Positions 1 to 29,720 of a stretch of 33,668 nt of DNA are shown one piece after another (the first letter of the stretch is position 1; every line of letters starts with the position of its first letter). Where the stretch lies: positions 1 to 33,668 of the forward strand of contig JBDRCV010000008.1 in NCBI GenBank assembly GCA_043821385.1. The letters are read 5' to 3'. The stretch comes from an archaeon (GTDB taxonomy: Archaea; Iainarchaeota; Iainarchaeia; Iainarchaeales; JBDRCV01). The notes beneath the pieces are model-generated. The model searched no databases and was not told where the DNA came from. It saw only the letters and a list, made by a program, of their open reading frames with translations. A program made the translations under genes and the position numbers.

Positions 1-656
1 TAAAGAAAACTATTCTGAAAGTCCAAGGAATTCATTAAATCAGCTTCAAAAAAAGTGCTAGTGTTAACTATTGGCAAAAAGAATAACTGGATTGTAATAA
101 TAATTCCAAGAAAAATAAAAAACATTAAATAACTTGAAAACAAAGCACTGAAAGTAACGCTCCTACGCTTTTGCTTTAACCTTTCAATTTCTGTTAAATA
201 ACGAGAAGTAACGTCAAAAACTTTTAACAAACTTCCTCCCTGCTTGTGGCTTTCAGAAATAACCATCACACTTTTTCTAATAATATTGCTTTTGATTTTT
301 CCAAAAACATTAATCATTGCATCCTCAAAAGACACGCCAAGCTTTAATTGTGCTGCAACTTTTCCAACCAAAAACTTTAATTTACCATAATCGTTTCTTG
401 AAACAATAGTCATTGCCTGAACAACACTCATTCCGCCTTGAAGCAAGTCACGCAAGTCATCCAAAAAAGCAGTAAAATTAACTTCATACTCGTGAACCAA
501 AAGCCTTTGCTTGTAATTAGCAATACCAATTAACATTACTATTGGCAGAAAAGATAAAACAGTAAAAGGAGTGCTAAGCAGGAAAATAAAAGTAATTAAT
601 GACAACAATAAACCAGTAATAAAGTACTTGAAATAATAACTTTCAATCAAACTCAT
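1..656 (-). CDS. Type IV filament membrane platform protein, single T2SS-F domain (TadB/GspF/FlaJ-like); 3' end cut by window edge
   Basis: Absent from the ORF track because it runs off the window. My own minus-strand translation from ATG 656-654 stays open to position 1: MSLIESYYFKYFITGLLLSLITF...FTAFLDDLRDLLQGGMSVVQAMTIVSRNDYGKLKFLVGKVAAQLKLGVSFEDAMINVFGK...ESHKQGGSLLKVFDVTSRYLTEIERLKQKRRS... This is TM helices flanking a cytoplasmic helical bundle, as in T2SS-F domains. An AGGTG SD overlaps the upstream stop codon (666-668). Confidence 0.75.
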   Translation of the reverse strand, partial: MSLIESYYFKYFITGLLLSLITFIFLLSTPFTVLSFLPIVMLIGIANYKQRLLVHEYEVNFTAFLDDLRDLLQGGMSVVQAMTIVSRNDYGKLKFLVGKVAAQLKLGVSFEDAMINVFGKIKSNIIRKSVMVISESHKQGGSLLKVFDVTSRYLTEIERLKQKRRSVTFSALFSSYLMFFIFLGIIITIQLFFLPIVNTSTFFEADLMNSLDFQNSFL

Positions 657-665: not shown

Positions 666-1538
666 CTACATTCCGCCAGGAGACATTATCTCCATTAACA
701 ACAAAAACACTATGTTTAACGCTGGAATTAACAGAAAAATTCCAATAGTTAACAAGAAGTCAATGGTTAAACCAAAAATAGTTCCGCCAAACATTCCCAT
801 TAACATTATTGCAGAAAAAATAAATAATGGTGCCGCAATAACAACTCCAGTATAAATGTCTCCAAAAGTTTCCGCTCTCTGGTTTACTTCATTCATTCTT
901 AAAACGTATTCAAATTGAGCTTTATCAGCACGCTTTTGCATAAACAACCCTAAATCTCCACCTGAAGACATTGAAGCCTTTAACTCAATCAAAAACTTTC
1001 TTAAATCATTTGAAACAGTTAACTTTGCAAGATGAGTAATAGCAGCACTTAAACTTAAACCAAGTTCATCCATAAACCTTTGAACCTTACTTAATTCCCG
1101 GGAAATTACAGGGTATTCTTCTGCTTCACCTAAATTCTGAAACATTGCACTAGGCGGAGTACCAGATTCCACAATAGTTGACATGCTTAAAATAGCTAAA
1201 GCTAGATTGTTTCTAATTACTTGAGCTTTCTTGAAAACCAAATAATAAGGGTAAACAAAAACCAACCCAATAAAACTAATAAGAAAAATAAAAAACAAGC
1301 CAACAAACAACAATAAATCAACTTCAAAATTAATGAAAGCAAAAAGAACAAGAGAAACTAACACGACAAAAAAAGCTGAAACAATTGAAGCCATAAACCC
1401 TAAAGACAAGTACTCTGGCAAACTAATTTCTACGTCAGCGTCAAACAACTTTTTCTCTAACTCTTTAGAGTCAATCAATAAAGCCAAAGGCTTAAAAAAC
1501 GCGAAAGCAATTTTAGCAAGCAAAACATACAATTTCAT
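666..1538 (-). CDS. Type IV filament membrane platform protein, single T2SS-F domain (TadC/FlaJ-like)
   Basis: 290 aa. N-terminal TM helices are followed by a cytoplasmic T2SS-F-like bundle (NNLALAILSMSTIVESGTPPSAMFQNLGEAEEYPVISRELSKVQRFMDELGLSLSAAITHLAKL...SSGGDLGLFMQKRADKAQFEY) and C-terminal TM helices. It lies 10 nt upstream of a second such gene. Confidence 0.8.
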   Translation of the reverse strand: MKLYVLLAKIAFAFFKPLALLIDSKELEKKLFDADVEISLPEYLSLGFMASIVSAFFVVLVSLVLFAFINFEVDLLLFVGLFFIFLISFIGLVFVYPYYLVFKKAQVIRNNLALAILSMSTIVESGTPPSAMFQNLGEAEEYPVISRELSKVQRFMDELGLSLSAAITHLAKLTVSNDLRKFLIELKASMSSGGDLGLFMQKRADKAQFEYVLRMNEVNQRAETFGDIYTGVVIAAPLFIFSAIMLMGMFGGTIFGLTIDFLLTIGIFLLIPALNIVFLLLMEIMSPGGM

Positions 1539-1592: not shown

Positions 1593-2129
1593 CTATTTCT
1601 TAATTAACTTTCTTTTCTCTAAAACTAATTCAAACAATTCTTTTGCGAAATCGTTTTTAATGCGTGCTTTTGCGCTATCATAGAATTCATTTAAATTGAA
1701 TTTATTGTTTTCAGTTTCATACTCTAAAGCCTGTAAAGCCATTTCCAGTTTATCCATATCCCTAACAAAAATTGCTTCAAGAGTTTTTCTTTCTTCAAAC
1801 TCTAACCATAAATCAATTAATTCTTGGTTGTTAGAAAAAAGTTTTTTTAAAGCATTTAACTCTAACTCATGTTGTTTCTCTATAGTAATTCCATCATGAG
1901 GGGTAAGGTCTCCAACAATACTTTCAGCTAAATCATGAATTAAAGCCATTTTAACACATTTTAACTCGTTTAAACCAGCTTTTCTTGCAAGAAGTAAAGT
2001 CATGACTGCCACCCGAAAAGAATGGTCTGCAACGCTTTCAGGATTAGGAATTTTCTTTAAAACCCATCCAGCTCTCTTCAATTTCTTTAATTCCCCAACT
2101 TTATGGAATAATTCAATTAAATCGTTCAT
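1593..2129 (-). CDS. HD-domain phosphohydrolase, YfbR/HDDC2-like 5'-deoxynucleotidase family
   Basis: 178 aa with family motifs LKRAGW, ESVADHSFRVAVMTLLLA and ALIHDLAESIVGDLTPHD. Same strand as its neighbours, 35 nt after the ATPase stop and 54 nt before the platform gene start. Confidence 0.8.
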   Translation of the reverse strand: MNDLIELFHKVGELKKLKRAGWVLKKIPNPESVADHSFRVAVMTLLLARKAGLNELKCVKMALIHDLAESIVGDLTPHDGITIEKQHELELNALKKLFSNNQELIDLWLEFEERKTLEAIFVRDMDKLEMALQALEYETENNKFNLNEFYDSAKARIKNDFAKELFELVLEKRKLIKK

Positions 2130-2164: not shown

Positions 2165-4282
2165 CTAAATCAGTTTTTCTTTTTTCTTGTAAGAATTTAA
2201 GTCTTCTTTGAATTCAATAAAGGTTTTTGGAGGGTCTTTAATTAAGCCGTCAAGGAATTGTTTTCTGGATTGAATTACTTCTAATATTCTTTGGTGTGAG
2301 ATACCGTACTCGGCTGAAATTGTTTTCAAAACCAGACTACGGTAAGTTATTGGAAGAAAATCAGTTCCAATTGTTTCGCCTTGGCCTGTAACACTGATTT
2401 CTGTTACTGGTTGTTTTTCCATTGCAGGATTCCATTCAAACAACTTGTTGGTTTCAAGTTTTTGGGTTTCAATGTTAAAACCTTTAACTTCATTTATTGC
2501 CCTAATCCTTCTTTCAATACTGCTGACTCCAGAAAACCCTAATGCAATAATTAAGTCTAGGCTGTTTAACAATGTTGGAGACAAATTAATTGGCGGAGTA
2601 ATTAACCTGTTAACCACGTCATCAACGCTTTTAGCGTGAATAGTTGAAAAACAAGTGTGTCCTGCACTCATTCCCTGAAACATAACGTAAGTTTCATCAC
2701 CTCGAACTTCTCCTACAATTAAGTAATCCGGACGCTGCCTGAAAGACTCTTTAATTAAGTCAATTAAACTTACTTCCCCGTACTTTCTTCCAGAAACATC
2801 TGGTGGACCAAAACCAGGCCTTGAAACTTGAGGTAGCCAGTTATCGTGAACCAAGTTAATTTCTCGAGTGTCTTCAATTGAAACAATTCTTTGAGCTGCA
2901 GGAATAAGCATTCCTAAAACGTTCAATAAAGTTGTTTTTCCTGAAGCAGTCGGCCCAATAATTAAGATTGAACGCTTGAATTCAATTGCCAGCCACAAGT
3001 AAGCTAGAATTTCAGTGTTAAGCATTTTAAATAAAACTAAGTCAATTGGACTAAAAGGAGTTTCAGGAAATTTTCTGATAGTAAAAGTTGGGCCGGAAGT
3101 TGAAATGCTTTCAGTTAAAACAGCGTTAACACGAGAACCATCAGGCAAAACTGCATCCAGTAAAGGCGAAGCAAAAGAAACATAACTCTTGCATAATTGA
3201 GATAACTTAATAATAAAATCCTGTAATTCTTCAATTGAATCAAAAGAAACATTAGTTTGAAGGTTACCGTATTTTCTGTGAACGATAAACAATGGAATGT
3301 TTGTTCCATCACATTCAATGTCTTCAATTAAAGGGTCATGCATTAATGGTTCAACTTTGTTGACTCCATACAAGTCTCTTGAAAGAAAGTAAACGAATTT
3401 TTCTTTTTGTTCGTCACTTAAAGTTAACTTGTTTTTAACTAAAATCTTGCTTAACCTGGTGAAAAGTTTTCCTTTTCCAACCGTACCCAAAGCAACTTCT
3501 TCAATAAACCTGTCTTTCAAAAAACTTAATTGTTTGGCTTCAGTGTCAGACAATAGTGGTTCGTAAACAAAGTATTTTTTGCCTTCCCTGGTTTCTTCCA
3601 CTTGAGCAAAAGCAAACTCTGGCACTAACGTTAAGTATTCTCCCATTGGCTTAAAAGATTTTTCTACTTGTTCTGCAGTACTTTCAAACAAGCTTTCATC
3701 TAAAGCTTCTGGTTTATTAAACATGCTTGGAAACAAGTCATGCAATTGTTCTCTAACGTAATCTTTTACCAGAGTTGAAAGAGACTCTTCACCAAAGTCA
3801 ACTTCAGTAACAGGTTTTTGTAAAACAATTTCTTTTTTGGTTTCTTTTGGAATTTCAATTATTTGCTTTATTTGCTCTTTCTTTAATTTAACTGGTTTTC
3901 TTACTTTAATGTTTGAAACTTTCTTTAAAGAATCCTTTAAATTAAACTTTAAATTACTTAAAGCACTGGCTTTATGGTAGCGCGTGAAAGGAAAAGAATG
4001 CAAGCCAACCGAGTCAGTAAGAGAATTAAAATTACTGGCCAGTCCAAGAAAGTCATTAATTATTTCGTTGTCAATTGTTTTTAATTGTTTTAAAGTATTT
4101 TTTTCTGTTAAAAGTTTCCTGTATTCTTTCCTGAATTCTTTTTCTGAAAGCTTTTTAGTTAAAAGTTTTTTCTCTAAGTCAACTGCCAGCTTGCTTGCCT
4201 GCAATCGTTTTTTCTCTGTTTCCTTAAGCTTTTGAACTTTCTTTTCAAGTTCAAGCATTAATTTAAAGGAAGGGTAAGTCAT
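2165..4282 (-). CDS. Type IV filament assembly ATPase (FlaI/ArlI / PilB / TadA / VirB11 superfamily) with long K/E-rich N-terminal extension
   Basis: 705 aa. Walker A is GPTASGKTT (nt 2931-2957). Other motifs are an Asp box SIEDTREI, Walker B region DYLIVGEVRGDE and a His box GHTCFSTIHA. The first ~210 aa (about nt 3650-4282) are lysine/glutamate-rich predicted coiled coil that I cannot assign to a family. Confidence 0.9.
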   Translation of the reverse strand: MTYPSFKLMLELEKKVQKLKETEKKRLQASKLAVDLEKKLLTKKLSEKEFRKEYRKLLTEKNTLKQLKTIDNEIINDFLGLASNFNSLTDSVGLHSFPFTRYHKASALSNLKFNLKDSLKKVSNIKVRKPVKLKKEQIKQIIEIPKETKKEIVLQKPVTEVDFGEESLSTLVKDYVREQLHDLFPSMFNKPEALDESLFESTAEQVEKSFKPMGEYLTLVPEFAFAQVEETREGKKYFVYEPLLSDTEAKQLSFLKDRFIEEVALGTVGKGKLFTRLSKILVKNKLTLSDEQKEKFVYFLSRDLYGVNKVEPLMHDPLIEDIECDGTNIPLFIVHRKYGNLQTNVSFDSIEELQDFIIKLSQLCKSYVSFASPLLDAVLPDGSRVNAVLTESISTSGPTFTIRKFPETPFSPIDLVLFKMLNTEILAYLWLAIEFKRSILIIGPTASGKTTLLNVLGMLIPAAQRIVSIEDTREINLVHDNWLPQVSRPGFGPPDVSGRKYGEVSLIDLIKESFRQRPDYLIVGEVRGDETYVMFQGMSAGHTCFSTIHAKSVDDVVNRLITPPINLSPTLLNSLDLIIALGFSGVSSIERRIRAINEVKGFNIETQKLETNKLFEWNPAMEKQPVTEISVTGQGETIGTDFLPITYRSLVLKTISAEYGISHQRILEVIQSRKQFLDGLIKDPPKTFIEFKEDLNSYKKKEKLI

Positions 4283-4305: not shown

Positions 4306-4653
4306 TTATTTTTCTTCCTCTATTTTTCCCAGTCCATCAGAGTCAATTCGAATATTATAAGCATCTTTTATTTCAGTTAAAATGTCAGTTAACTCGTTTA
4401 CAAGCGAAACAATTTCACTCCACTTGTCTTTCTTTGTTTCAATTGCTTTACTTAAACGTTGTTTGCTTGAGTCAACAATTTTTAAATAAGAAAACTTGCT
4501 TATATCTCCGTCATCAAACCTTTTTTTCACTCCTTCACTTTCAGCTTTAATTGCTTGAGCTTCTTTTTCTAAACTCCTTAAAGATTCAACTGCCGCCACT
4601 ACAAGATTTGTTTTGTCCTCGAACTCATCTAATGCTTCAATAACATCCTTCAT
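4306..4653 (-). CDS. Small coiled-coil protein, unknown function (pilus operon member)
   Basis: 115 aa, charged heptad-like sequence with no TM segment. It sits 24 nt upstream of the ATPase gene on the same strand. Coding status is supported by operon context only. Confidence 0.5.
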   Translation of the reverse strand: MKDVIEALDEFEDKTNLVVAAVESLRSLEKEAQAIKAESEGVKKRFDDGDISKFSYLKIVDSSKQRLSKAIETKKDKWSEIVSLVNELTDILTEIKDAYNIRIDSDGLGKIEEEK

Positions 4654-4668: not shown

Positions 4669-5187
4669 TCATGATTTCCTGATTAAAGAAGTATTACCTT
4701 TAACCAGTTTCAAATACAGTGAAAAATCATTCCCTGCATTATAATCACACTCACAAAGACTAATGTTTACATCATTTAAAAAGATTTCCTTTACCAGAGA
4801 ATTAGCATCAGTCAAGGTTCCCTGACTAACACCATTAAAATAATAACTGCATTCTTTTTGCATGAAGTTGCCTAAAACATAGCCAGCGTTAACATCAAAA
4901 GCAATAAAACAAAAAGAAGGCTCAAAAGCAGAGCGTTGAGCTTGCTCTTTAACCTTTACTCCAAAGTCAAACAAGTTAGAGTTTAAATCAAAAACTATTG
5001 GAATAGTAGTGGCAGAAGACATAGTTGTAAGGTAAACAAAATAAAACTCGTTTGAAAAATTATCTAAAAGAAAATCACTTGAATTAACAGTTGGCTGAAC
5101 GCTAATGTTAGCAGCGAAAAAAAAAGCAATAATTAAGCCAATAAAAATTAAGGCTCCAAGAATAAAAACAAAACCTTTTTCAGCCAT
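4669..5187 (-). CDS. Pilin-like protein with class III (prepilin) signal peptide
   Basis: I prefer the internal ATG at 5187 over the track start at 5244. It gives MAEKG/FVFILGALIFIGLIIAFFFAA, a short charged leader ending in KG followed by a hydrophobic helix, the same 5-residue leader as the three upstream pilins. It also gives an 8-nt overlap (ATGGCTGA) with the preceding gene. The mature part has four Cys. Confidence 0.65.
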   Translation of the reverse strand: MAEKGFVFILGALIFIGLIIAFFFAANISVQPTVNSSDFLLDNFSNEFYFVYLTTMSSATTIPIVFDLNSNLFDFGVKVKEQAQRSAFEPSFCFIAFDVNAGYVLGNFMQKECSYYFNGVSQGTLTDANSLVKEIFLNDVNISLCECDYNAGNDFSLYLKLVKGNTSLIRKS

Positions 5188-5566
5188 AACTCCACCCGTA
5201 AACCTGTAAAACTTTTGGATTGTAAGACAAAACGTTTCCTTCAAACAAGTAATTGACTACCACAGTGTTAGCGTTTGATGGCTTGGAACCATAACAAACA
5301 CCATTACTAACATCCAGTCCCTCACAAACTCTTACTTCTAATCCTAAGTCAATCATTTCCTGTAATTCTTCTTTAATTAAAGATGTTTGATGCAAAGAAA
5401 CTTTTTCCCTGAAATCTTGTTTTAACGCTAGCTCTGAAACCGTGCTCTCAATGCTTTCTTGCAAGGAATTCATTCTTGGAGTTGAAACTAATGAAGCCTG
5501 ACTGACAGTAAAAAAAACTGTAAACAATAACGCTACAGCAATTAATGCTTCAATTACTTTAATCAT
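5180..5566 (-). CDS. Small protein with N-terminal hydrophobic helix (possible minor pilin or signal-anchor protein)
   Basis: 128 aa starting MIKVIEALIAVALLFTVFFTV; there is no [KR]G leader. Its ATG overlaps the giant gene stop (ATGA at 5563-5566), implying translational coupling. Confidence 0.55.
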   Translation of the reverse strand: MIKVIEALIAVALLFTVFFTVSQASLVSTPRMNSLQESIESTVSELALKQDFREKVSLHQTSLIKEELQEMIDLGLEVRVCEGLDVSNGVCYGSKPSNANTVVVNYLFEGNVLSYNPKVLQVYGWSYG

Positions 5567-8500
5567 TTTCTTTGACTCCTGACTTTTAACTCCGAGTACT
5601 TTAATTTGCCGTCAGAGTAAAGGTAAGGAAAAGTTTCACTTTTAACACTTGCAAACCTTTCAGAAATTAAAGAACCATAAGACAAGTTAATGTCTTGTTT
5701 TTCAAACGAAAGCAAGTAATTCAAGTCACTTGAAAAAGCATTAAAGTCTGGAGTAGTAATAACCTTCAAACTTGAAATCAATGGTTTTGTAAGGTAACGA
5801 GTGTTAGTGAAAGTTTTCCCTAGGTTTGAAGGACTGTAACGGAATTTAAGTAAAGCATTAAAAGCACAGCCAATCGTAACGTTTTCATCCAGCCAAACAT
5901 CACAGTCACCGTACTTGGTTTCGTTTCCAACAGTCACAGTTTCAGGGTTTAAGACAGCACGCCTAATAGAAAAATTATCAAACCTTGCCTTGCTTCCCCT
6001 TGTAACTAACCCAATGTCTCCTGGAGGTAAAGGACTTGAATCATTAAAGTCAATCAATAAATTGTTGTCAACAAAAACTTTAATGTTGTTTTCAACCATT
6101 TTCACACTTAACTTATACCAAGTTTGAAAGTTAATGGTTGTTGAATCATTAAAGTCAAGTAATTGGAATTCAAATTGCCCAGGACCAATTTGATTTGATT
6201 TAACTAAAGCAACAGGCAAAGGGTTTGCAGGAGTAGGAGTAGTATAATTTATTTGAGCCACATAAAAAATGTTTCCTTTTCTTTGAAACTTTATTCCAAC
6301 GTTATGGTCTCCTGCAGTAGCATCTGTTTCGTCAATGTAAACGTTTGCATCAACCCAAAAATTGTTGTCTCTGACAAAGTCAACAACTGTTCCTTTTACA
6401 CTAGAAGAATTAACTTGAGTGTACTGCTTGTTAACAATTGCCCAAGAAACGTTTATTTCATCCCAGTCAATTGGGTCACCATCATCTTCATTACCATCAT
6501 CAAAGTTATCAAACGCAACCAAGGCTTTTAAAGCATTTGAATCAAAAACCGCATTACTTTTACCGTAAGCTATAGCATAATCTCTTGAAGTAGTATTAGC
6601 TGGAAGGCTTCTTTGAAGTTTAAAGAAAACATTAGAGTCAACAGAATTACAATCCATTACAATAGTATCAAGCAAACTATTACCTTTTAAGTCAAAAACT
6701 TTAACGTCATTACAGTCACTTAAAACTTTTCCTGCAGCAATCAAGGACTGCGTGTCAAAACCAACCCTGACAGAATAATTAACGTCTAATGATTCAATTG
6801 AAGAAGAAACAATTAAAGGTTTCTTGAAAGAGTAGCCAAGGTTAACCCAAGACGAATTGTTTTCATCCTCTCTCATTAAATCAATTGTTAAAGTAGTGTT
6901 GTCATCTAAAGAATTATGCAAGATTAACTGGTTTGAAGTCAAATAATTGTTGTTAGAATTGTTGTCTTGAATTAAACCATTAATAGTTGAAAAATTGCTT
7001 AATGACTGGAAATTAAATTTTGTTGGATAAGAAATTTCTAACTTGTTTTGGTCTCTTGCAACATCAAAGTAAACAAAATAATTCCTGATTTTTCTGTCAG
7101 AAGAATTCACGTCAACTAAAATGTTTAAGTCTCCAATTTTAGTTGAAGAATTGAAAGAGAATTGTGACGGCACTGACGAACAAGTGTTTGGCGAAAGCTT
7201 GTTAGCATCAAGACAAAACATTTTTCTGTCAAGACTTGAAACATTAAAGTCATCAATTGAAACTCTTGTTATAACAGTGTCAAAAGCAATAAATTTGCCA
7301 GTGCGTAATGGCACGGAATCCTGCCAGCTGCCAAGATAAGTTCCGTCACGCCACACTTTAATTAACCCGTCAGTAATTGTAATCCTGTAAAAATACTGGG
7401 TTCCAGCAATTGCAGCAGCAGCAATAATTGATTGCTCTGCTTTAACGTCATTTGAAACCTTTAAAATTGTAAGACTGTCAGCGTTCTGGTCAACAATGTA
7501 AGCGCTGTGCCCAAACCTTTTAAGAGAGTCTTGAAGGTGAGAGTAAACCATTGCATGCGTGTTAGAATCAAACTTCATTGTAAACTGTAAGTCAATGTTA
7601 GAGTGAGGAAGGTAAACGAAAGCATTAGAGTTATCATCTAAATCGCCTTGCTTTAACATTTCGTTTTCAATAAACCAGTTACCGTCACGAAAAACCCAGC
7701 CGTTAGCATCATTAAAATTATCTGTAAATTGGTCAGAATACTCTACTACTCTAATAGAGTTAGCGTCTAAAGCCCTTGAATCTGAAACCCTGCTTAAAGC
7801 TTTAGAGAAATCAATTTTAGTTTCAGCTAAAAAGTTTTGGTCAATTGTTCCAGTGTTCACACTTACAGGTAACCTGTAAAGCCATTCATTGTACAATGGC
7901 ATAACGTTAACGTCAGCAACAACTAACTGTGACTCTATTGCCCTTAAACCAATTCCACCCTTGTTTACTCCTGGATTAAAACCAGAGTCAGTTGAATCAA
8001 TATCCCAAGAACTTGACTCTGAGTCAATTGAACGCCAAACCCTAAATTTAATTGCATCTTTATCCAAATAAATTTTAGCATTATACCAAGAATTTAAAAC
8101 CATTGTCTTGTCAGCTGACGCAATAAGAGTGTAAACACCATTAACATACCTTCTGATTTCAAGGTTTCTGGAAGCTGGTTCAGGTGAAACCACAAAAGCC
8201 AAAAAGTTTTTTGAGTCAATGTAACGAACCAAAAACTCTACTTGTTTTTGGCCAACGTTTGCAACCTTGAACTTTGTCTTAAAAACATAATTAGAGTAAT
8301 TAATGTCTTCAATTGTTGCAGTATGATTTGTGTCAGTAGCTAACTCAAAATAATTACTGTCAAGCACTTGCCAGTTGCCTGAAACCTCGTTCCAGTCACC
8401 AGGATAACCATCATTAGCGTTATTGTCTTCAAACGCGTCAAAGAAAATACTGTCAGTCCACCAGTTCGCACTAAAAGTTATGCCGTTGTCATCCTTGCTT

Positions 8501-11500
8501 TGCCAGTTGTTAAACAAGGTTGGAGTAATTTCAATGTTGTTGTCTTGAGGTAACTGTAACCAGAATTCCGGTGAGTGAGAAAAGAACCTGAAAGCATAAT
8601 TAGAGTCATTTAGTTTAGCAGAAAATAAAGAGTTATCGTCTATATTAAAACTTTGAGTTAAAGGACTCCATAAAATTAATTCATTGCTTAAAGAATTTTT
8701 CAAGTAATTAATTTGAAGGTTTAAATCTAAAACGTTTATGTCAAAGAATTCATTACTAACAGTATAATCTGAACCATTTACAGCTAAATCCAAGTCAAGG
8801 CTTTTTGAAACTTTTAAGTCATCAAACAATACTTTTGACTCAATGGTTTCAAAACCAACCCCACCAGAAACAAAACTTGAATCAGTTGCAGTAACCAACT
8901 CATTGTCATCAAAAAAACAACTAATGCTTGAACTAACAGCTTTAGCTTTCAATGAATGCCAGCCATTAAAATCAAAACTTGCAAGACTAACCGGATTAGT
9001 TTCAGAACCATAATTAACTGAAACAAAATCAAGCAATGGAGTAATGTTGTTGTCAGAAGTTTCAAAAAACGCTTTAAACTGCAAGTAACGATTATTAGTT
9101 AAATTCAAATCAATAACATTAGCATCATAATAATAAGTGTTAATTGAACCATCAGGGCCAGCATAAGCAGGCCAACTAGCATTATCAGCATCAGTTCTAA
9201 ACTGGAATTTAATGTCTGCTTTTGAAGCTTGATAATGGTTCCAAATTTCTTTACCAGTTAATTCTTTTGAATAAAACTTTAAGTCATCAATTACTCCATG
9301 AAAGTTATCAGTGTTACCTCCCCAAGTAGCACCAACACCCATATCATAATTTGAACAAGTTGAAGGAACAACTGCAACAGAAGGAGTGCCGGATTGAACA
9401 ACACTTGCTTCAACTCCATTAATGTAAAGTTTTATTACTCCACCAACACTATCATAAGTTCCAGCAAGAAAATTCCACTTATTAACATCAAGCTTTTTAG
9501 ATGAACCAACCCAAACATCTGCGACCCCTGCACCTGAACTCACAACCCAGTAAACGTTTGAATCATTCTGCAAGTACAAGAAAGTGTGGTCTGTTTGATC
9601 ATAAATCATTCTCCACTCCCTGTTTCCCGGGTCAGTCCAAGAAGCATCAAAAGATTTAATCCAAACTTCAAAAGAAAACTCTGCACCGCCAAGAAAATCA
9701 TAACAAGACATAAAGTTATCGTCACCATCAAACATTAAACCAGAACTGATTCCATTCCTTCCAGTAACCCAAGTAGGCTTGTTAGCTGGATTACCTGTAC
9801 CACCAAGATTTCCTGTTCTAGCATTAAAACCAGCATCCTTACTTGTCACTCCAGTATTTTCATCAAAACGATAAAAAGCTATAAAGTTTTCATCAAAAAC
9901 ATCTGCCTGCCCGTAAAGATACCATTCATTAAAATCAAGAGTATTCCAAGTAACACCAGCAGTCCCAGAATCAAGTACAGTGGATTCAAGGTAACCAGAT
10001 TGACGCCAATTAAACGTAGTGTTAACGTCCTTGAATTCACTTACTCCGTTAACGTCAATTCTTTTATGAGCGTTCTGGTCTTCAATTACAAAAGTTTGCT
10101 TGTCAAAAAAAGTAACGTTAACGTCATACAAGCCATTATAATCCACACCACAATGAATGTCATTAGAACTGCCTTTCTCATAAACATCTCTAGAACAAAC
10201 CAAATTTGACTGCTGGTCAAAAACCCTAACTTTAGCACCCAAATCATGGTTTAAATCACCTAAACCAAGATCATTTTGATCTAACCTTACAACTAAATAA
10301 TTTAAGTCATCTCTAGAATTCCTGTAAAAATAATTATTGTTTCCTCCAACAAACAAGTCTAAATCGCCGTCATTATCATAATCTCCCCAAGCAAACGCGG
10401 CACCCTTGTTAGCACTTGAAATGCCAACCAAAGAACTAACATCAGTGAAAACATCACTGCCATCATTCCTCCATAACGCGTCCTTTTTTCCAACAACTAA
10501 ATCCAAGTCACCGTCATTATCATAATCGCCCCACGCACACTCTAAATAATTCCAAGCAGTCAAAGCTTTAACGTTAGTGAAAGACAATCCACCATCATTC
10601 CTAAAAATATTCGTGTTACCATAAGCAGCTAAACCAACATCAATATCCCCATCATTATCATAGTCACCCCAGCAAGCATCAGTTGCTGCAGCATTAAACT
10701 TTATCGGGTTAGTGATTTCAACAAAAGTTCCATTATCATTCCTAAAAAGCCTGTTAGTATTACTAACCCAGATTGGCAGAAAAATATCCATGTCGCCATC
10801 AGAATCAATGTCAACAAAACTAACTTCATAAGAAACATTACCATCATTTAAACCAACATGCTCTGCAGTAACATCAGAAAATTCTCCATTCAAGTCATTC
10901 CTAAACAACTGGTTTGGAGTATTAGCATTGTCACCAGTTAAATACAAATCAATATCTCCATCATTATCATAATCCCCCCAAGCCGCAGCACGATTATAGT
11001 TAGCTGTCTGACCGCCAACTTTTGCAGTACCAGTAACTTCAGTAAAAGTACTGTCACCATTATTTCGGAAAAGCTTGTTTGCAGCACCACGAATAATTAA
11101 ATACACGTCCTGATCCCCGTCATTATCATAATCAACCCAGTTAGCTTCCTGACCACCTTGAGCATTAGCAAGCCCAGCACTCACAGCAATATTAGTGAAA
11201 TTAAAGTTACCGTCATTCCTGTAAAGTTCGTCAGCTCTACCACCATAAACTACATGCAAATCTAAATCCCCGTCATTATCAAAGTCAACCCAGTTAACGC
11301 CTTGCTGCATTCCATTCTTGTTAGCCGCTTTAATGTTAACTCCAGCACCAATCGCTGTTTCCTCAAAATTACCATCCACATCCAATCCAAGCATTGCAGA
11401 ATCCTTAAAAACAACTAAATTCAAGTTAACGTCAGTGTCAGCTTCAAAGTCAGCGAACTCATCTTGAGTTAAGTCACCTGAAACACCACGAAAATTACTT

Positions 11501-12198
11501 TTCACTCCACCAGAATATTTTACTAAATCATACTCTAAAGCATTATTAATTTCACAAGCATAATAATTGCTTGAATCCTGCAAACGAAAAACAAGCCCTA
11601 AACCATTAACGTCAACAGTGTTAGGCTTAAAAATAGTTTCAACAAACAAGTCACTCCAATCACCATTAACATAACTTAAACCGTTAACATCAGAGTTAGA
11701 CTGAAAATAATAACGATTGCTTGCAGTCCAAGAACCAGAACTCTCAACCCAAGTCAAAGGTTTTGAATCATTGATTGCTTCATCTTCAAAGTTTTCCATT
11801 ACATCAACTACTCCGTCCTGCGAGAAAGCTAAAAGATTAGAATCCAAGAAAAACAATTGAGTTAAATTATCTCTGGTTGGATCAATCAAAGAATACAAGG
11901 AATTGCTTACAATTGAATAATACTGGTTTGAAACAATGTTATCATCACTGCCAAAAGATAACTGCACAGGGTAAAAAGCATTACAATCGTAAATAGAATT
12001 GTTACAGTAAGGAGCTAAATTCAACTGGTAAACGTTAGCCTTAACCGGCACGTCCTGAAAAGCCTGAATGTAAAGCGATTCAGTTAAAGCAACATCAAAA
12101 GATTGTCGTTCAGGAAGAAACTGCGGTAAAGCAATCAAAACAAACACTACAGCAAACAAAAAAATCATACTGCCAACAACCCAATCAATATAATGCAC
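5563..12198 (-). CDS. Giant (2211 aa) membrane-anchored extracellular protein: FG-GAP beta-propeller + ASPIC/UnbV-like + LamG + multiple concanavalin/DUF1080-like jelly-rolls; putative pilus-associated adhesin
   Basis: Uninterrupted 6.6-kb ORF. A GTG start at 12198 lies 8 nt after an AGGAGGG SD (12207-12213). The N-terminal hydrophobic helix is WVVGSMIFLFAVVFVLIAL. Seven FG-GAP/VCBS repeats (W[GV]DYDNDGD[LI]DL...[LF]FRNDG) are followed by an ASPIC-like segment. A LamG (Laminin_G_3-like) domain ends in HGVIDDLKFYSKELTGKEIW (9241-9300). At least four jelly-roll units end in ...FDDLKV, ...VADVNV, ...IDDFNV and ...FDNFSI. N-x-S/T sequons are numerous. Confidence 0.85.
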   Translation of the reverse strand: MHYIDWVVGSMIFLFAVVFVLIALPQFLPERQSFDVALTESLYIQAFQDVPVKANVYQLNLAPYCNNSIYDCNAFYPVQLSFGSDDNIVSNQYYSIVSNSLYSLIDPTRDNLTQLFFLDSNLLAFSQDGVVDVMENFEDEAINDSKPLTWVESSGSWTASNRYYFQSNSDVNGLSYVNGDWSDLFVETIFKPNTVDVNGLGLVFRLQDSSNYYACEINNALEYDLVKYSGGVKSNFRGVSGDLTQDEFADFEADTDVNLNLVVFKDSAMLGLDVDGNFEETAIGAGVNIKAANKNGMQQGVNWVDFDNDGDLDLHVVYGGRADELYRNDGNFNFTNIAVSAGLANAQGGQEANWVDYDNDGDQDVYLIIRGAANKLFRNNGDSTFTEVTGTAKVGGQTANYNRAAAWGDYDNDGDIDLYLTGDNANTPNQLFRNDLNGEFSDVTAEHVGLNDGNVSYEVSFVDIDSDGDMDIFLPIWVSNTNRLFRNDNGTFVEITNPIKFNAAATDACWGDYDNDGDIDVGLAAYGNTNIFRNDGGLSFTNVKALTAWNYLECAWGDYDNDGDLDLVVGKKDALWRNDGSDVFTDVSSLVGISSANKGAAFAWGDYDNDGDLDLFVGGNNNYFYRNSRDDLNYLVVRLDQNDLGLGDLNHDLGAKVRVFDQQSNLVCSRDVYEKGSSNDIHCGVDYNGLYDVNVTFFDKQTFVIEDQNAHKRIDVNGVSEFKDVNTTFNWRQSGYLESTVLDSGTAGVTWNTLDFNEWYLYGQADVFDENFIAFYRFDENTGVTSKDAGFNARTGNLGGTGNPANKPTWVTGRNGISSGLMFDGDDNFMSCYDFLGGAEFSFEVWIKSFDASWTDPGNREWRMIYDQTDHTFLYLQNDSNVYWVVSSGAGVADVWVGSSKKLDVNKWNFLAGTYDSVGGVIKLYINGVEASVVQSGTPSVAVVPSTCSNYDMGVGATWGGNTDNFHGVIDDLKFYSKELTGKEIWNHYQASKADIKFQFRTDADNASWPAYAGPDGSINTYYYDANVIDLNLTNNRYLQFKAFFETSDNNITPLLDFVSVNYGSETNPVSLASFDFNGWHSLKAKAVSSSISCFFDDNELVTATDSSFVSGGVGFETIESKVLFDDLKVSKSLDLDLAVNGSDYTVSNEFFDINVLDLNLQINYLKNSLSNELILWSPLTQSFNIDDNSLFSAKLNDSNYAFRFFSHSPEFWLQLPQDNNIEITPTLFNNWQSKDDNGITFSANWWTDSIFFDAFEDNNANDGYPGDWNEVSGNWQVLDSNYFELATDTNHTATIEDINYSNYVFKTKFKVANVGQKQVEFLVRYIDSKNFLAFVVSPEPASRNLEIRRYVNGVYTLIASADKTMVLNSWYNAKIYLDKDAIKFRVWRSIDSESSSWDIDSTDSGFNPGVNKGGIGLRAIESQLVVADVNVMPLYNEWLYRLPVSVNTGTIDQNFLAETKIDFSKALSRVSDSRALDANSIRVVEYSDQFTDNFNDANGWVFRDGNWFIENEMLKQGDLDDNSNAFVYLPHSNIDLQFTMKFDSNTHAMVYSHLQDSLKRFGHSAYIVDQNADSLTILKVSNDVKAEQSIIAAAAIAGTQYFYRITITDGLIKVWRDGTYLGSWQDSVPLRTGKFIAFDTVITRVSIDDFNVSSLDRKMFCLDANKLSPNTCSSVPSQFSFNSSTKIGDLNILVDVNSSDRKIRNYFVYFDVARDQNKLEISYPTKFNFQSLSNFSTINGLIQDNNSNNNYLTSNQLILHNSLDDNTTLTIDLMREDENNSSWVNLGYSFKKPLIVSSSIESLDVNYSVRVGFDTQSLIAAGKVLSDCNDVKVFDLKGNSLLDTIVMDCNSVDSNVFFKLQRSLPANTTSRDYAIAYGKSNAVFDSNALKALVAFDNFDDGNEDDGDPIDWDEINVSWAIVNKQYTQVNSSSVKGTVVDFVRDNNFWVDANVYIDETDATAGDHNVGIKFQRKGNIFYVAQINYTTPTPANPLPVALVKSNQIGPGQFEFQLLDFNDSTTINFQTWYKLSVKMVENNIKVFVDNNLLIDFNDSSPLPPGDIGLVTRGSKARFDNFSIRRAVLNPETVTVGNETKYGDCDVWLDENVTIGCAFNALLKFRYSPSNLGKTFTNTRYLTKPLISSLKVITTPDFNAFSSDLNYLLSFEKQDINLSYGSLISERFASVKSETFPYLYSDGKLKYSELKVRSQRK
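10340..11300 (-). repeat. Seven tandem coding repeats (FG-GAP blades) inside the giant gene
   Basis: The plus-strand DNA motif CC(A/G)TCATTATCATA(A/G)TC...CCCCA recurs near 11271, 11120, 10960, 10795, 10650, 10510 and 10370. The period is about 140-160 nt and each copy encodes D(N/S)DGD calcium-loop motifs. Confidence 0.75.
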
Positions 12199-12242: not shown

Positions 12243-12761
12243 TTAACTGTAAGACGGTTTTTGCACTCTGATTTTAATTGTTTTAATTCCCCCGCTAAAA
12301 GAATTGTAATCAGCAAACAAAACATGTTGTCCTGAAAAAACCATTAAATTAGAGTCAGTTAAAATGTTAATGTCAGAACCAGTGAAATTGAGTCCGATTG
12401 AAAGCTGGTTGCCTGAACGAGAGTAAAAAATTCTTCCAACTACAGCAGAATAATTTTCGTCAATGATTTCACTTGAAACATGCTGTTTTAAAGTAATTGA
12501 ATCAGTATCAGAGTTAATGTCAATAAAACCATTCCTTAACTCAAATGAAACGCTTTTAGAGCTGCCGACACTTAAGTCTGCAACGTCTGTAATCACGGAA
12601 TTAATTTCAGTTACCAAGTCTTTTGCGTGCTCAAAGTCTCGAACATCATTCAATTTCTCAAAGTAAGGCAAGGCCAAAAAAGCAATAGAGAAAACAATAA
12701 TAACACTTAAAACAAACATGAATACAGCAATAACCAACTGGTTTACTCCTTTTTCATTCAA
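12243..12761 (-). CDS. Archaeal type IV pilin (class III signal peptide), paralog 3
   Basis: 172 aa starting (M)NEKG/VNQLVIAVFMFVLSVIIVFSIAFLA. The start must be TTG at 12761 (no in-frame ATG precedes the helix), overlapping the upstream stop as TTGA. It shares internal blocks with the other two paralogs (SVSFELRNGFIDINSDTDSITL; LSIGLNFTGSDINIL). Confidence 0.8.
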   Translation of the reverse strand: MNEKGVNQLVIAVFMFVLSVIIVFSIAFLALPYFEKLNDVRDFEHAKDLVTEINSVITDVADLSVGSSKSVSFELRNGFIDINSDTDSITLKQHVSSEIIDENYSAVVGRIFYSRSGNQLSIGLNFTGSDINILTDSNLMVFSGQHVLFADYNSFSGGIKTIKIRVQKPSYS

Positions 12762-13264
12762 GTCTTTCTCACTCTCACTAACGCCTTACTAGTTACCGAA
12801 TTAAAACCATTATAGTCAAGAATGATGTGATTGAATCCAGGAAACAAAGAAATGTTGTCGTCTAAAATTAAATCAACTCCCAAAGCATTAAAGTCAACAC
12901 TTAAAACAGCAAAATTGTCTGAAACACTTACAGAAAAGTTTTCATCAGAGAAAGTTGAATTGTTTGCAAGAAAACCTTCACCAACATTAATTTTGCTTGA
13001 CATGGTTTCAATGTCAGCATTAAAGTCAATTGAAAAATCCCTGAAAGTTAAATCTAATTGCTTGCTGGAAGAAGGCATTGACGCAACAGACAAAACCTCA
13101 ACTTTAATTAACTGTAAAGTATTTTTAGAGTTCTGGAATTCCGGAAGTTTCTGCCATTCCTGCACTTGATACAAGCCTTGAGTTAAAACAATTGAAATTA
13201 AAACAACAGCAAGAATTAACAAAAGCAATCCAGAAAAAATTGCCGAAACACCTTTATTATACAT
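12758..13264 (-). CDS. Archaeal type IV pilin (class III signal peptide), paralog 2
   Basis: 168 aa starting MYNKG/VSAIFSGLLLLILAVVLISIVL. A GGAGGA SD lies inside the end of the upstream gene. Paralog blocks are QLDLTFRDFSIDFNADIETM and LSVDFNALGVDLIL. Confidence 0.8.
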   Translation of the reverse strand: MYNKGVSAIFSGLLLLILAVVLISIVLTQGLYQVQEWQKLPEFQNSKNTLQLIKVEVLSVASMPSSSKQLDLTFRDFSIDFNADIETMSSKINVGEGFLANNSTFSDENFSVSVSDNFAVLSVDFNALGVDLILDDNISLFPGFNHIILDYNGFNSVTSKALVRVRKT

Positions 13265-13272: not shown

Positions 13273-13776
13273 TTATCCTCCAATCCTCTTAACGCTAACC
13301 CAAACAATTCCAGGCTGACTTCTTTCCTTTTTTACCACTAACTCATGCAATCCCTTGTTTAAAAACAAGTTGTTATCAAACCCAATAACAGAGTTAGAGT
13401 AATCCAAACCCAAAGTTAAACGATTACCAGTCCTTGAAATAAAAAAGTTTGTTTCACTATAATTAGAGTCAATGTCAAAATAACCCGCATTAATGTAATG
13501 ATGCAAGACTACAAGATTGTAATCAGAGTCAACGTTTAAATCAAAGTCCCTTAAATCAATTGAAATTAATTTGCTTGAACCACTTTCAAGCAATGAAACT
13601 TCATTAATGTTTTCCTCTAACCCGCGCAAAATGTTTGCAGCAATTTCAAAGTCAATAGTGTTCTGTGTTTCCTCCAAAAAAGGAAAACCAATCTGCGTTG
13701 CAACAGCAATCGAAACAACCGCAATAAATAACAACAACAAACTTGAAAGAAAAACATTAACTCCTCGCTCTAACAT
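13273..13776 (-). CDS. Archaeal type IV pilin (class III signal peptide), paralog 1 (first gene of operon)
   Basis: 167 aa starting MLERG/VNVFLSSLLLLFIAVVSIAVA. Paralog blocks are LISIDLRDFDLNVDSDYNLVVL and LTLGLDYSNSVIGF. Confidence 0.8.
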   Translation of the reverse strand: MLERGVNVFLSSLLLLFIAVVSIAVATQIGFPFLEETQNTIDFEIAANILRGLEENINEVSLLESGSSKLISIDLRDFDLNVDSDYNLVVLHHYINAGYFDIDSNYSETNFFISRTGNRLTLGLDYSNSVIGFDNNLFLNKGLHELVVKKERSQPGIVWVSVKRIGG

Positions 13777-16055: not shown

Positions 16056-16073
16056 AACTATAGCACTATAGTT
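16056..16073. promoter_or_regulatory. Perfect 8-bp inverted repeat (AACTATAG-CA-CTATAGTT), candidate VapB operator
   Basis: Read directly from the sequence. It lies between a TATA-like CTTTTAAG (about 16047-16054) and the SD/ATG of the VapB-like gene (16088). Confidence 0.4.
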
Positions 16074-16087
16074 TGTGGGTGATAAGT

Positions 16088-16297
16088 ATGGTTACTACCA
16101 CTATTCAAATTGAAGCCCCAACAAAAGAATTGTTGAACGAACTTAAAACAAGCTTTTCAACAAAAACTTACGATGAAGTAATAAGAATTCTTGTAAAAAA
16201 GAAAACCAAGTCAATGTATGGAAAGCTAGGTAAAGGTAAGAAGATATCGGCAACTGAAATGATGAAAGGATTACGGGACAAGCATGACAGATACTAG
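16088..16297 (+). CDS. vapB: VapB-type antitoxin (DUF217/PF02697-like)
   Basis: ATG at 16088 lies 7 nt after a GGTGA SD; the track TTG at 16073 was rejected. MVTTTIQIEAPTKELLNELKTSFSTKTYDEVIRILVKKK matches the archaeal small-antitoxin pattern. It overlaps the downstream PIN gene by 14 nt. Confidence 0.65.
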   Translation: MVTTTIQIEAPTKELLNELKTSFSTKTYDEVIRILVKKKTKSMYGKLGKGKKISATEMMKGLRDKHDRY

Positions 16298-16664
16298 CAT
16301 TTTCTTAGATTCTAGTATTTGGTTAGGTTACTTTTTGGGAAATATTGAAAAAACAAAAGAAATAATTGAATCAGAAGAAACTATATTATTTACTTCAATT
16401 ATTTCAATTCACGAAGTATTCAAAAGACTAAACAAACAAAAACAAAACTCTTGGAAAGCAGTAAAATTCATTGAAGAAAACAGTATAATAGTCAATTTAA
16501 ACAAAAATATTGCAATAACTGCTGTTAAAAACTGTGAAAAATACAAGTTGCATACAACTGATTCATTAATTTACTCAAGCTCTGAAGAAATGAAAACAAT
16601 ATTTATAACTGCTGATAACGACTTCAAAAAAACACATAACACAATAATAATAAAGACAAAGTAA
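16284..16664 (+). CDS. vapC: PIN-domain ribonuclease toxin VapC
   Basis: 126 aa. The acidic PIN residues are in the expected order (IFLDSS..., ...SIHEV..., ...TTDSLIY..., ...ITADNDF). Confidence 0.8.
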   Translation: MTDTSIFLDSSIWLGYFLGNIEKTKEIIESEETILFTSIISIHEVFKRLNKQKQNSWKAVKFIEENSIIVNLNKNIAITAVKNCEKYKLHTTDSLIYSSSEEMKTIFITADNDFKKTHNTIIIKTK

Positions 16665-20620: not shown

Positions 20621-20815
20621 ATGGAAGCAATTACTAAAACTAGGCGAATTGGTGGTTCTATTGTTACAACTATTCCAAAAGAAGTGGCAGAAAAACTGAA
20701 ATTAAAAGAAAATGAGTTAATCGAAATTGAAATAAAAAGAGTTAAAAAAAGCTTTTTTGGAGCTATAAAAGGAATTCCTTCATTTAAAGAAGATGATAGG
20801 TTTGACAGAGCATAA
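20621..20815 (+). CDS. vapB: AbrB/SpoVT/MazE-fold antitoxin (VapB-like)
   Basis: 64 aa. RRIGGSIVTTIPKEVAEKLKLKENELIEIEI is a typical swapped-hairpin AbrB motif. A GGTGG SD lies upstream and a TTTAAATATA box about 40 nt upstream. Confidence 0.75.
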   Translation: MEAITKTRRIGGSIVTTIPKEVAEKLKLKENELIEIEIKRVKKSFFGAIKGIPSFKEDDRFDRA

Positions 20816-29565: not shown

Positions 29566-29647
29566 AAAAATCAACAGAATTAAACAACAAAACCTTTTTA
29601 AATGATTAGCGAAGTTGATTACGACAATGTTAAGTGACTGTGGTAAG

Positions 29648-29720
29648 CAGGCCGGGCGGGAATCGAACCCGCAACCTACAGCTTAGGAGGCTGTTGCCAT
29701 ATCCATTAGGCCACCGGCCT
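29648..29720 (-). tRNA. tRNA-Arg (anticodon CCT), no encoded CCA
   Basis: Hand-folded cloverleaf from AGGCCGGTGGCCTAATGGATATGGCAACAGCCTCCTAAGCTGTAGGTTGCGGGTTCGATTCCCGCCCGGCCTG. The acceptor stem is 7 bp (AGGCCGG/CCGGCCT) and the anticodon stem 5 bp (ACAGC/GCTGT), with loop CT-CCT-AA. The T arm is GCGGG-TTCGATT-CCCGC and the discriminator is G. Confidence 0.9.

Follow-up and report, generated by a model that had tools for sequence, protein, structure and literature searches.

The window analysed here, a 33,668-nucleotide stretch of archaeal DNA (contig JBDRCV010000008.1), contains an open reading frame of 2211 amino acids (aa), and this raises the question of how so large a protein is put together and what it might be for. 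An initial annotation had described it as a β-propeller, a LamG domain and at least four jelly-rolls, arranged in a line on an N-terminal helix anchor. The reading frame is as it was given there (5563-12198, minus strand, uninterrupted), and we refer to its product as the giant protein. Sequence comparison indicates that the giant is a scaffold protein of about 520 aa, of a kind encoded in pilus loci, which has been enlarged about four-fold by insertions at three points of the scaffold and by an addition at its end. It is probably a large adhesin of an archaeal type IV pilus-like (type IV filament, TFF) system, that is, a pilus-associated, multivalent and predicted glycan-binding protein. Coordinates are collected in Table 1.

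Scaffold and insertions

A hidden Markov model (HMM) of the core family was built from three short members, P0258, P0292 and P0244, and has 522 positions. It matches the giant in four pieces: model positions 1-118 match aa 1-124 (68.9 bits, E 1.7e-23), positions 124-243 match aa 1132-1251 (58.0 bits, E 3.6e-20), positions 247-312 match aa 1437-1501 (E 2.2e-13), and positions 309-488 match aa 1669-1861 (E 2.4e-10). The pieces adjoin one another in the model, while in the giant there are jumps of about 1007, 185 and 167 aa between them; BLAST gives the same four-piece pattern. The second jump is exactly jelly-roll 2 and the third is jelly-roll 3, which has model positions 312 and 309 at its edges. 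Jelly-roll 3 splits a DUF2341-like domain, with '...IRVVEYSD' on one side and 'VPSQFSF...' on the other; in P0258 the two run on without a break. Jelly-roll 4 and a tail of 129 aa come after the scaffold.

No jelly-roll module was found in the scaffold-family relatives. Because the scaffold is kept in four pieces, and because the relatives lack this module, about 77% of the giant (approximately 1700 aa) can be regarded as accreted. The architecture is therefore not the linear string of modules first proposed, and is better described as a scaffold with nested insertions, in which the propeller and LamG appear to lie inside a split jelly-roll, and jelly-roll 3 inside the DUF2341-like domain. Every insertion appears to be of a lectin type, comprising four jelly-rolls related to the carbohydrate-binding module family CBM66, one LamG domain and one FG-GAP propeller, making six modules. 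The reading of the giant as a multivalent binding protein stands, and is sharpened by the CBM66-like character of the jelly-rolls.

The scaffold family is small and of DPANN (Diapherotrites-like) origin. Its members other than the giant have 411-1096 aa, and all begin with M-x-x-x-D-[WL] followed by a helix. Eight of nine relatives have the aspartate at position 5, as the giant does; in P0244, the start of which is uncertain, it is at position 7. The N-terminus of the giant (MHYIDW) aligns with its homologs from residue 1, so the start codon is taken to be correct. A HMMER search, run exhaustively over 1.84 billion cluster representatives with aa 1-300 as query, found the N-terminal module in only five other proteins, of 170-527 aa, together with many unrelated large proteins that match the jelly-roll part alone. 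The named proteins with the N-terminal module are a 'hypothetical protein' of an unclassified archaeon and one of a Candidatus Diapherotrites metagenome-assembled genome. A homolog search with the whole giant returned solely FG-GAP proteins with a query coverage of 11-24%, matches which do not address orthologs. Relatives in the same position in the operon were found in related genomes (see below), none of them carrying the jelly-roll module of the giant.

DUF2341 is clear in one member of the family, the 1096-aa protein L009:3940-7230 (68.7 bits, 5.9e-19), and four other relatives gave no Pfam match. After its DUF2341 domain, L009:3940-7230 has an apparent concanavalin-like module, seen by eye (FDFFDDFDGTSLDTQKW). 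If this module is real, the accretion of lectin modules onto the scaffold would have happened more than once. The C-terminal tail of the giant gave no match in a sequence search of the PDB.

The jelly-roll modules

The HMM for the jelly-roll was made from the three obvious copies in the giant, enlarged by 20 full-length copies from other proteins. It matches the three intact giant copies (about 170 aa each) with 116-141 bits. Pfam recognizes the module as 3keto-disac_hyd/DUF1080 (PF06439; 4e-11 in the giant), and its scan also lists DUF6250. A 16-sequence jelly-roll profile (A4), of which 13 members match PF06439, was searched against the PDB, and found the CBM66 module of Bacillus subtilis levanase (4b1l, 4azz and 4b1m, E 3.8e-25 to 7.6e-25), with an alignment covering the full length of the module (query 10-164 against chain 8-161). 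CBM66 is described as binding fructans, especially levan (Cuskin et al. 2012, as cited in PMC8715580).

On this evidence the jelly-rolls are best described as CBM66-like carbohydrate-binding modules and predicted binders. The four DUF1080-type jelly-rolls of the initial annotation are all present; the DUF1080 label appears right at the level of the superfamily, and the closest characterized relative (E about 4e-25) is by this profile match a non-catalytic binding module, not a hydrolase. All four giant copies match the profile that finds full-length CBM66 of SacC levanase (PDB 4AZZ, 4B1L, 4B1M). The identity is about 18-19%, and the modules are attached to an adhesin scaffold, whereas that of SacC is attached to a glycoside hydrolase.

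Jelly-roll 1 is in two parts. When aa 135-244 and 1076-1132 are spliced together they give one end-to-end match to the jelly-roll HMM (positions 6-166, 127.8 bits), equal to the intact copies, whereas the match of the contiguous aa 135-297 ends at position 125. Pfam DUF1080 also aligns this splice as a single stretch (profile 36-186), at a score below threshold. AlphaFold2 was used to predict the structure of the splice, with the three paralogs as alignment. The model is all-β, with a predicted local distance difference test score (pLDDT) of 65.5 and a predicted template modelling score (pTM) of 0.65, and its best match in the PDB is CBM66, over 154-161 of about 165 residues (TM 0.65, E 1e-9). 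The splice point was picked from the profile, and the confidence of the model is moderate. Read most simply, jelly-roll 1 is interrupted by some 830 residues, which carry the propeller, the post-propeller segment, LamG and two β-rich stretches. A similar split was seen in none of 195 copies of the module in 47 other proteins. An alternative splice of aa 732-770 with 989-1132 gave no gain in score (46.2 bits, HMM 109-166 only), and the region made up of aa 732-770 and 989-1075 is therefore not the missing half of a jelly-roll.

One further copy of the module occurs in the window, at aa 1135-1288 (jelly-roll HMM 32.6 bits) of a secreted protein of 1582 aa at 24079-28827 (+). Besides fn3 and a region resembling GH127, this protein has RIFT-barrel and sandwich domains of the PcRGLX-like type and a C-terminus rich in Cys. 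More than one large surface protein of this genome thus has the module.

The propeller and its surroundings

The FG-GAP motifs are at aa 303, 354, 407, 461, 510, 556 and 604, a spacing of 46-54 aa. All seven units have a complete DxDxDGxxD loop, and each is followed by [LIFY][FWY]RN[DNS], much as the initial annotation had it. Pfam FG-GAP_3 (PF13517) matches in six stretches (1.5e-37), and profile searches thus recover all three of the expected families, FG-GAP, LamG and DUF1080. The loops are of the calcium type and are predicted calcium sites.

Structures were predicted with AlphaFold2 for aa 1-1140, using an alignment (A3) that contained 24 bacterial seven-repeat units from the whole-giant homolog search, giving 25 rows over the propeller. 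A first alignment (A2), in which MAFFT had spread ASPIC tails, a LamG row and jelly-roll rows over the query, was dropped. Over aa ~298-628 the pLDDT of the model is about 90, and the 27-28 strands there fall into seven groups of four. The region of about 290-650 thus contains a confidently predicted propeller of seven four-stranded blades, and the N-terminal helix that had been proposed is also predicted, at aa 2-27. Foldseek comparison of the propeller model with the PDB gave murine CRTAC1 as the top match (9etn_A, E 3.6e-16, 448 columns), followed by the seven-blade FG-GAP lectin PVL of Psathyrella velutina, which binds N-acetylglucosamine (GlcNAc), with integrin α chains lower down. The predicted structure supports the proposed assignment to the integrin/CRTAC1-like seven-blade type.

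The named nearest relatives of the propeller are all bacterial. Bacterial FG-GAP/VCBS-ASPIC multi-propeller proteins have the same seven-repeat unit, at 41-44% identity to that of the giant, and share with vertebrate CRTAC1, the best structural match, the calcium-type loop found in every blade of the giant. The bacterial proteins carry arrays of propellers, whereas the giant has a single one. An ASPIC/UnbV-like segment had been expected after the propeller. There is no Pfam match, to UnbV_ASPIC (PF07593) or any other family, within aa 625-775 or aa 629-726, even with E values of up to 10 allowed, and an HMM made from 66 bacterial ASPIC domains scores -3.4 bits on this segment. BLAST of whole bacterial propeller units extends to aa ~670-715 of the giant, and a degenerate ASPIC remnant after the propeller is possible. 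With the defining ASPIC/UnbV domain undetectable, and the propeller apparently located within a split jelly-roll, the giant is on sequence grounds not a member of the CRTAC1/ASPIC families.

A short G-A-x-V-x-[IV] motif occurs on both flanks of the propeller: AIGAGVNIKA (11308-11466, aa 245-297) and LGAKVRVFD (10225-10251, aa 650-658). Both resemble the bacterial ASPIC core IGARVRV, with insignificant scores (0.2 and -3.4 bits).

The LamG domain was correctly placed by the initial annotation (9241-9886, aa 772-986), and agrees with the match to Laminin_G_3 (PF13385; 68.7-72.3 bits against a cut-off of 27.6). It also matches the LamG part of P0058 (BLAST, E 5e-9). The same annotation saw LamG as apparently nested within a β-sandwich formed by the sequences on either side of it, aa 732-760 and 989-1067. 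The corresponding splice, of aa 723-771 with 988-1072, gave no Pfam family and no match among 295 proteins. A PDB sequence search with aa 625-1075 gave only insignificant matches to pentraxins (E 0.1).

The pilus-like operon and related loci

The giant is the fourth of at least 11 genes on the same strand, separated by gaps of -65 to +54 nucleotides (nt). By their sequences and order, these genes appear to form an archaeal type IV pilus-like operon. Pilin-like genes 1 to 3, upstream of the giant, are paralogs, with mutual E values of 1e-18 to 1e-24. The small pilin-like proteins are not recognized by NCBIfam, and their assignment is based on signal-peptide motifs, paralogy and operon context. 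The secretion ATPase scores 329 bits against the FlaI model, below its cut-off of 550 bits. A second T2SSF-like gene adjoins the first, indicating that the platform protein is split over two genes, as in 'system 1 / clade 1' loci; two T2SSF genes are present in the related loci as well. The HD_3 gene looks out of place in the operon, and the related loci that were looked at do not have it.

Table 1. Features of the giant protein and of the operon encoding it. Positions are those of the window; a slash marks the cleavage position in class III signal peptides.
Feature	Position	Strand	Description
Giant open reading frame	5563..12198	(-)	2211 aa + stop; GTG start, GGAGG Shine-Dalgarno 8 nt upstream
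Scaffold segment 1 (N-module)	11827..12198	(-)	aa 1-124; MHYID-W, hydrophobic helix aa 2-27, LPQFLP, CNNSIYDC loop
Jelly-roll 1, N-terminal part	11467..11796	(-)	aa 135-244; jelly-roll HMM positions 5-123, 71.7 bits (match spans aa 135-256)
Seven-blade FG-GAP β-propeller	10315..11307	(-)	aa 298-628; seven DxDxDGxxD loops
Post-propeller segment	10024..10314	(-)	aa 629-725; position of ASPIC/UnbV in bacterial relatives; no profile match
LamG / Laminin_G_3	9238..9885	(-)	aa 772-987; Pfam core aa 837-985
β-rich segment	8974..9237	(-)	aa 988-1075; formerly proposed second sandwich half; no family match
Jelly-roll 1, C-terminal part	8803..8973	(-)	aa 1076-1132; jelly-roll HMM positions 109-167, 41.3 bits (match aa 1074-1132)
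Scaffold segment 2	8449..8802	(-)	aa 1133-1250; EFWLQLP...NWQ...WWTD motifs
Jelly-roll 2	7900..8448	(-)	aa 1251-1433; between scaffold segments 2 and 3; full-length HMM match, 140.8 bits
Scaffold segment 3	7732..7890	(-)	aa 1437-1489; first half of DUF2341-like domain (EWLYRLPVSV...IRVVEYSD)
Jelly-roll 3	7234..7731	(-)	aa 1490-1655; inside DUF2341-like domain; full-length HMM match, 116.4 bits
Scaffold segment 4	6616..7194	(-)	aa 1669-1861; rest of DUF2341-like domain 1 and start of DUF2341 domain 2
Pfam DUF2341 (PF10102) match	6460..6717	(-)	aa 1828-1913; 22.0 bits vs cut-off 23.4, E 2.3e-4
Jelly-roll 4	5959..6516	(-)	aa 1895-2080; only giant copy above Pfam DUF1080 cut-off (33.7 vs 26.8)
C-terminal tail domain	5566..5952	(-)	aa 2083-2211; BLAST E 2.9e-12 to L010:3725-7690
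Pilin-like gene 1	13273..13776	(-)	167 aa; class III signal peptide MLERG/VN
Pilin-like gene 2	12758..13264	(-)	168 aa; MYNKG/VS
Pilin-like gene 3	12243..12761	(-)	172 aa; MNEKG/VN; ends 44 nt before giant gene
Leaderless pilin-like protein (MIKVIEALIAVALLF)	5180..5566	(-)	128 aa; start overlaps stop of giant by 4 nt
Pilin-like protein	4669..5187	(-)	class III signal MAEKG/FVFILGAL; probable start 5187
Coiled-coil protein	4306..4653	(-)	115 aa; directly upstream of ATPase in relatives too
FlaI/TadA-type secretion ATPase	2165..4282	(-)	705 aa; long N-terminal extension; T2SSE 8.6e-32
HD_3 / YfbR-like 5'-deoxynucleotidase-type gene	1593-2129	(-)	between ATPase and TadC-like genes
TadC/FlaJ-like platform gene 1	666..1538	(-)	290 aa; T2SSF 3.4e-12; matches N-terminal half of ArlJ
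TadC-like platform gene 2	1..656	(-)	T2SSF-like open frame; starts 9 nt after gene 1, runs off window start

Four related loci, L005, L007, L008 and L009 (the contigs of the ATPase homologs P0125, P0134, P0138 and P0140), carry a common block of genes. It consists of a large protein (661, 514, 608 or 1096 aa), Sec61β on the opposite strand, and proteins of about 327 aa, about 120 aa and about 143-170 aa, followed by a coiled-coil protein of about 117 aa and the ATPase. In three of the four loci the protein of about 143-170 aa, the counterpart of the pilin-like protein at 4669..5187, carries the signal [KR]GFTYIII. The large proteins begin MDYIDW, MDYIDW, MEHIDW and MEYVDW; a hydrophobic helix and LPxFLP come next, compared to MHYIDW...LPQFLP in the giant, and the proteins match the N-terminus of the giant in BLAST with E values from 6e-8 (aa 1-131) to 4e-4. 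The N-terminus of the 128-aa protein is also kept, in the protein of about 120 aa as MIKS[LI]E[VA]V in L005, L007, L008 and L009 and as MPIKTIEVLI in a further locus, L010.

The protein of about 327 aa (L005:7756-8739, L007:7659-8645, L008:7717-8691 and L009:7533-8525) is conserved and membrane-anchored, with a C[RS]xVPG[ML]C motif. It and Sec61β, which in the four relatives lie between the scaffold-family gene and the 128-aa-type gene, are both missing from the operon in the window.

Two other loci contain large proteins of different types. L010:3725-7690 encodes a protein of 1321 aa with BNR/Asp-box-like repeats and an apparent Sec-type signal peptide, as judged by eye. It is directly upstream of the 128-aa-type gene, and its C-terminus is the same tail domain as in the giant (E 2.9e-12); a common tail may couple variable large proteins to the pilus machinery. 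L003:13256-16321, in a related DPANN pilus locus where it adjoins four small pilins, encodes a protein of 1021 aa in which a canonical archaeal pilin N-terminus, again seen by eye (KSVSPLIATLLVIGLALVIAG), is fused to a Vgb_lyase/NHL-type β-propeller (1e-58). It is a candidate 'modular pilin' bearing a propeller.

The closest named homologs of the ATPase (up to 50-56% identity) are from Diapherotrites/Iainarchaeum and unclassified archaea, and the rest of the window is archaeal, with genes for thermosome, NMD3 and β-CASP. The archaeal origin given by the initial annotation is thus well founded, and the best hits lead us to infer a DPANN-type archaeon as the host. No close relative came up when metagenomes were scanned with the ATPase, and a genome scan found only an Aenigmatarchaeota locus, at 41% identity, which has no large neighbouring gene.

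Function of the giant protein

The operon and the modules together suggest how a pilus-associated adhesin of this kind might work. The giant would be exported, and its N-terminal helix would be kept, so that the protein is anchored in the membrane or the pilus while most of it lies outside. The conserved scaffold and tail would dock onto the adjacent minor pilin-like proteins. The accreted modules would then bind at high avidity to glycans, whether of a partner cell, of an S-layer or of a polysaccharide matrix, the six of them giving a multivalent and probably calcium-dependent recognition. By this means the pilus system could attach a small-genome archaeon to its host or substrate. The giant might be placed at the pilus tip, as proposed for PilY1-like proteins, at the base, or on the cell surface beside the pilus.

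One trait of a pilin is present at the N-terminus, where a hydrophobic helix is predicted for aa 2-27 and residue 5 is acidic, a hallmark of bacterial pilins. The near-invariance of this residue at the start of the helix, the leaderless 128-aa neighbour and the pilin-propeller protein of L003 together argue that the giant is pilin-like and may be incorporated without a leader. By its N-terminal sequence it is not a canonical type IV pilin.

Several points weigh against a pilus-associated adhesin. The giant has no class III signal peptide: its MHYIDW start has neither a basic leader nor a [KR]-G cleavage motif, and the giant and nine relatives all have the M-x-x-x-D-[WL] start with no basic residue and no G/A/S cleavage site. 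The missing leader argues against ordinary pilin processing. DUF2341 is just below the Pfam cut-off in the giant itself (22.0 against 23.4 bits), and the scaffold family is so far known from genes alone. In the four relatives, the opposite-strand Sec61β gene parts the scaffold-family gene from the rest of the operon, and co-transcription of the operon in the window is suggested by spacing only. An extracellular location would follow from the domain types, the Cys pair and the calcium-type loops; no charged flank fixes the topology. In the AlphaFold2 model of aa 1-1140, pLDDT falls below 50 wherever alignment depth is absent, as it does for the N-module and jelly-roll 1, for the post-propeller segment, and for LamG and aa 988-1140. 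Finally, homology to a carbohydrate-binding module does not give ligand specificity.

Part of this evidence also fits a different protein. The giant could be a helix-anchored protein of the cell surface, such as an S-layer-associated sheath or adhesin, which is co-regulated with the pilus or aids envelope crossing and is never in the filament. The lack of a class III cleavage motif is as expected for such a protein, as is the 1321-aa protein in the same place in L010, with its apparent Sec-type signal and the same tail; and some large proteins of TFF loci are reported to be S-layer-like and may prime the cell wall (2026 preprint). However, an acidic residue at position 5, directly before the helix, is found in all relatives except the one with a doubtful start, a conservation that is unusual for a simple anchor. 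The neighbouring 128-aa protein is likewise leaderless, with a pilin-like N-terminus and a conserved Glu, and its start overlaps the stop of the giant. We regard a co-regulated surface protein of this sort as possible though less likely. The giant might instead be an extracellular enzyme that processes glycans, or a scaffold for harvesting them, as would be suggested by the Pfam names, with DUF1080 being called 3-keto-disaccharide hydrolase and LamG_3 belonging to the concanavalin A-like lectin/glucanase superfamily, and by the PcRGLX-like/GH127-like 1582-aa protein, which implies that use of polysaccharides is within the repertoire of the organism. This seems improbable, because Pfam detects no catalytic glycoside hydrolase or lyase domain in the 2211 aa, the jelly-roll profile fits the non-catalytic CBM66 (E 4e-25) far better than any enzyme, and the position in the operon is conserved together with pilus genes.

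It is also conceivable that there is no such protein, and that the reading frame is an assembly chimera or the result of neighbouring genes fused by a sequencing error. An exact look-up of the 2211-aa sequence found no record with an identical product, and the giant is a singleton among 90% clusters. Yet the frame runs open for 6.6 kb at a G+C content of 33-37%, the four scaffold segments keep both their order and their reading frame across every insertion, and the halves of jelly-roll 1 complement each other to within a few residues. The G+C content at third codon positions is even across the modules (0.18-0.34), giving no compositional sign of recent horizontal transfer of the insertions, and both the start and the stop of the gene are coupled to its neighbours. 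An artefact is thus very hard to credit. We return to a pilus-associated adhesin as the probable function. A more specific version of it is speculative, and on present evidence unlikely: that the M-x-x-x-D-W family and the 128-aa M-I-K-x-x-E family are leaderless tip subunits, uncleaved by prepilin peptidase, and that the tip accretes host-recognition lectins by nested insertion, so forming a hypervariable specificity determinant for host attachment by DPANN archaea.

The initial annotation also described the giant as dense in N-x-S/T sequons. It has 35, against 31.5 +/- 4.7 in 500 shuffled sequences of the same composition, and the claim is not upheld: the number reflects composition (10% Asn, 14% Ser+Thr) and not selection for sequons.

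Comparison with known systems

Besides an ATPase and two TadC genes, clade 1 loci for archaeal type IV pili contain at least five minor pilins and two large proteins with DUF2341, and the latter two have been proposed as PilY-like tip adhesins (Makarova et al. 2016, PMC4858521). System 1, with its two platform genes, is placed in some DPANN archaea (2026 preprint). The DUF2341 proteins of the 2016 survey (arCOG03508 and others) are like the giant in being large secreted or anchored proteins among a VirB11/FlaI-family ATPase, two TadC-like genes and minor pilins with class III signals, and would share a DUF2341-type domain, for which the match is borderline in the giant and clear in its L009 ortholog. 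They differ in their hosts, which are methanococci and thermococci as against a DPANN-type archaeon; in that the M-x-x-x-D-W module is not described there; and in that CBM66-like, LamG and FG-GAP insertions make the giant four times as large as its own relatives. We consider it most likely that the giant is an elaborate variant of this already predicted 'PilY-like' kind.

PilY1 of Pseudomonas aeruginosa and PilC of Neisseria are also large non-pilins encoded with minor pilins, with a β-propeller that has calcium loops and a proposed role in attachment at the tip. The propeller of the giant is of the FG-GAP type, however, and PilY1 has a Sec signal peptide in place of a conserved N-terminal helix. 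The C-terminal propeller of PilY1/PilC (Pfam Neisseria_PilC) has no match in the whole giant or in its segments. By analogy, the resemblance appears to be one of function and not of family membership.

Modular type IV pilins are known in Streptococcus sanguinis, where PilB has a vWA module and PilC a lectin module. In these proteins too, large adhesive or lectin modules are joined to an N-terminal helix of pilin type, and the gene is in a pilus locus. They are class III pilins cut by prepilin peptidase, whereas the giant is leaderless and about five times larger.

Other genes in the window

A transglutaminase-core protein with a lipoprotein-like N-terminus (…LISGC) is encoded at 16665-17732 (-), 3 kb from the pilin genes. 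Surface-located peptidases from the transglutaminase family have been linked to clade 1 loci for type IV pili (Makarova et al. 2016, PMC4858521). The gene at 30703-33156 (+) encodes 817 aa with the look of a surface protein, having a hydrophobic segment at the N-terminus, a weak match to Big_7 and, at the C-terminus, a transmembrane helix followed by a basic tail (…IIITTIFVIIKRVKARKRFY). There is a PIN-domain gene at 20793-21191 (+; Pfam 9.7e-11) and a candidate PIN gene at 16284-16664 (+), the latter with a small partner open reading frame upstream of it (16073-16297). Both are probably parts of toxin-antitoxin pairs. A tRNA-Arg(CCT) gene is located at 29647-29720.

Biological significance

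Giant surface proteins with many lectin domains are common. The observation that started this work is real and its domains had mostly been read well, yet it is ordinary in kind. The giant stands out from other multi-lectin proteins by its pilus context, by the conserved family of its scaffold and by the nesting of its architecture. There is no new principle here, since adhesins of archaeal pilus loci had previously been predicted from genomes; what is new is a DPANN family with the M-x-x-x-D-W module, the four-fold expansion of one of its members, and the nesting of its insertions, as read from the sequences. A β-sandwich apparently broken by about 830 residues that contain two further domains is a natural case of domain insertion at several levels, which is relevant to protein evolution and engineering, and a comparison across the family, from 411 to 2211 aa, shows where the scaffold takes up new binding modules.

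The genomes of DPANN archaea are small, and those of them that have been cultivated live attached to other cells, which they must recognize and hold. The locus described here provides a concrete and clonable candidate for such attachment, and its six lectin-type modules would allow the ligands to be identified module by module.

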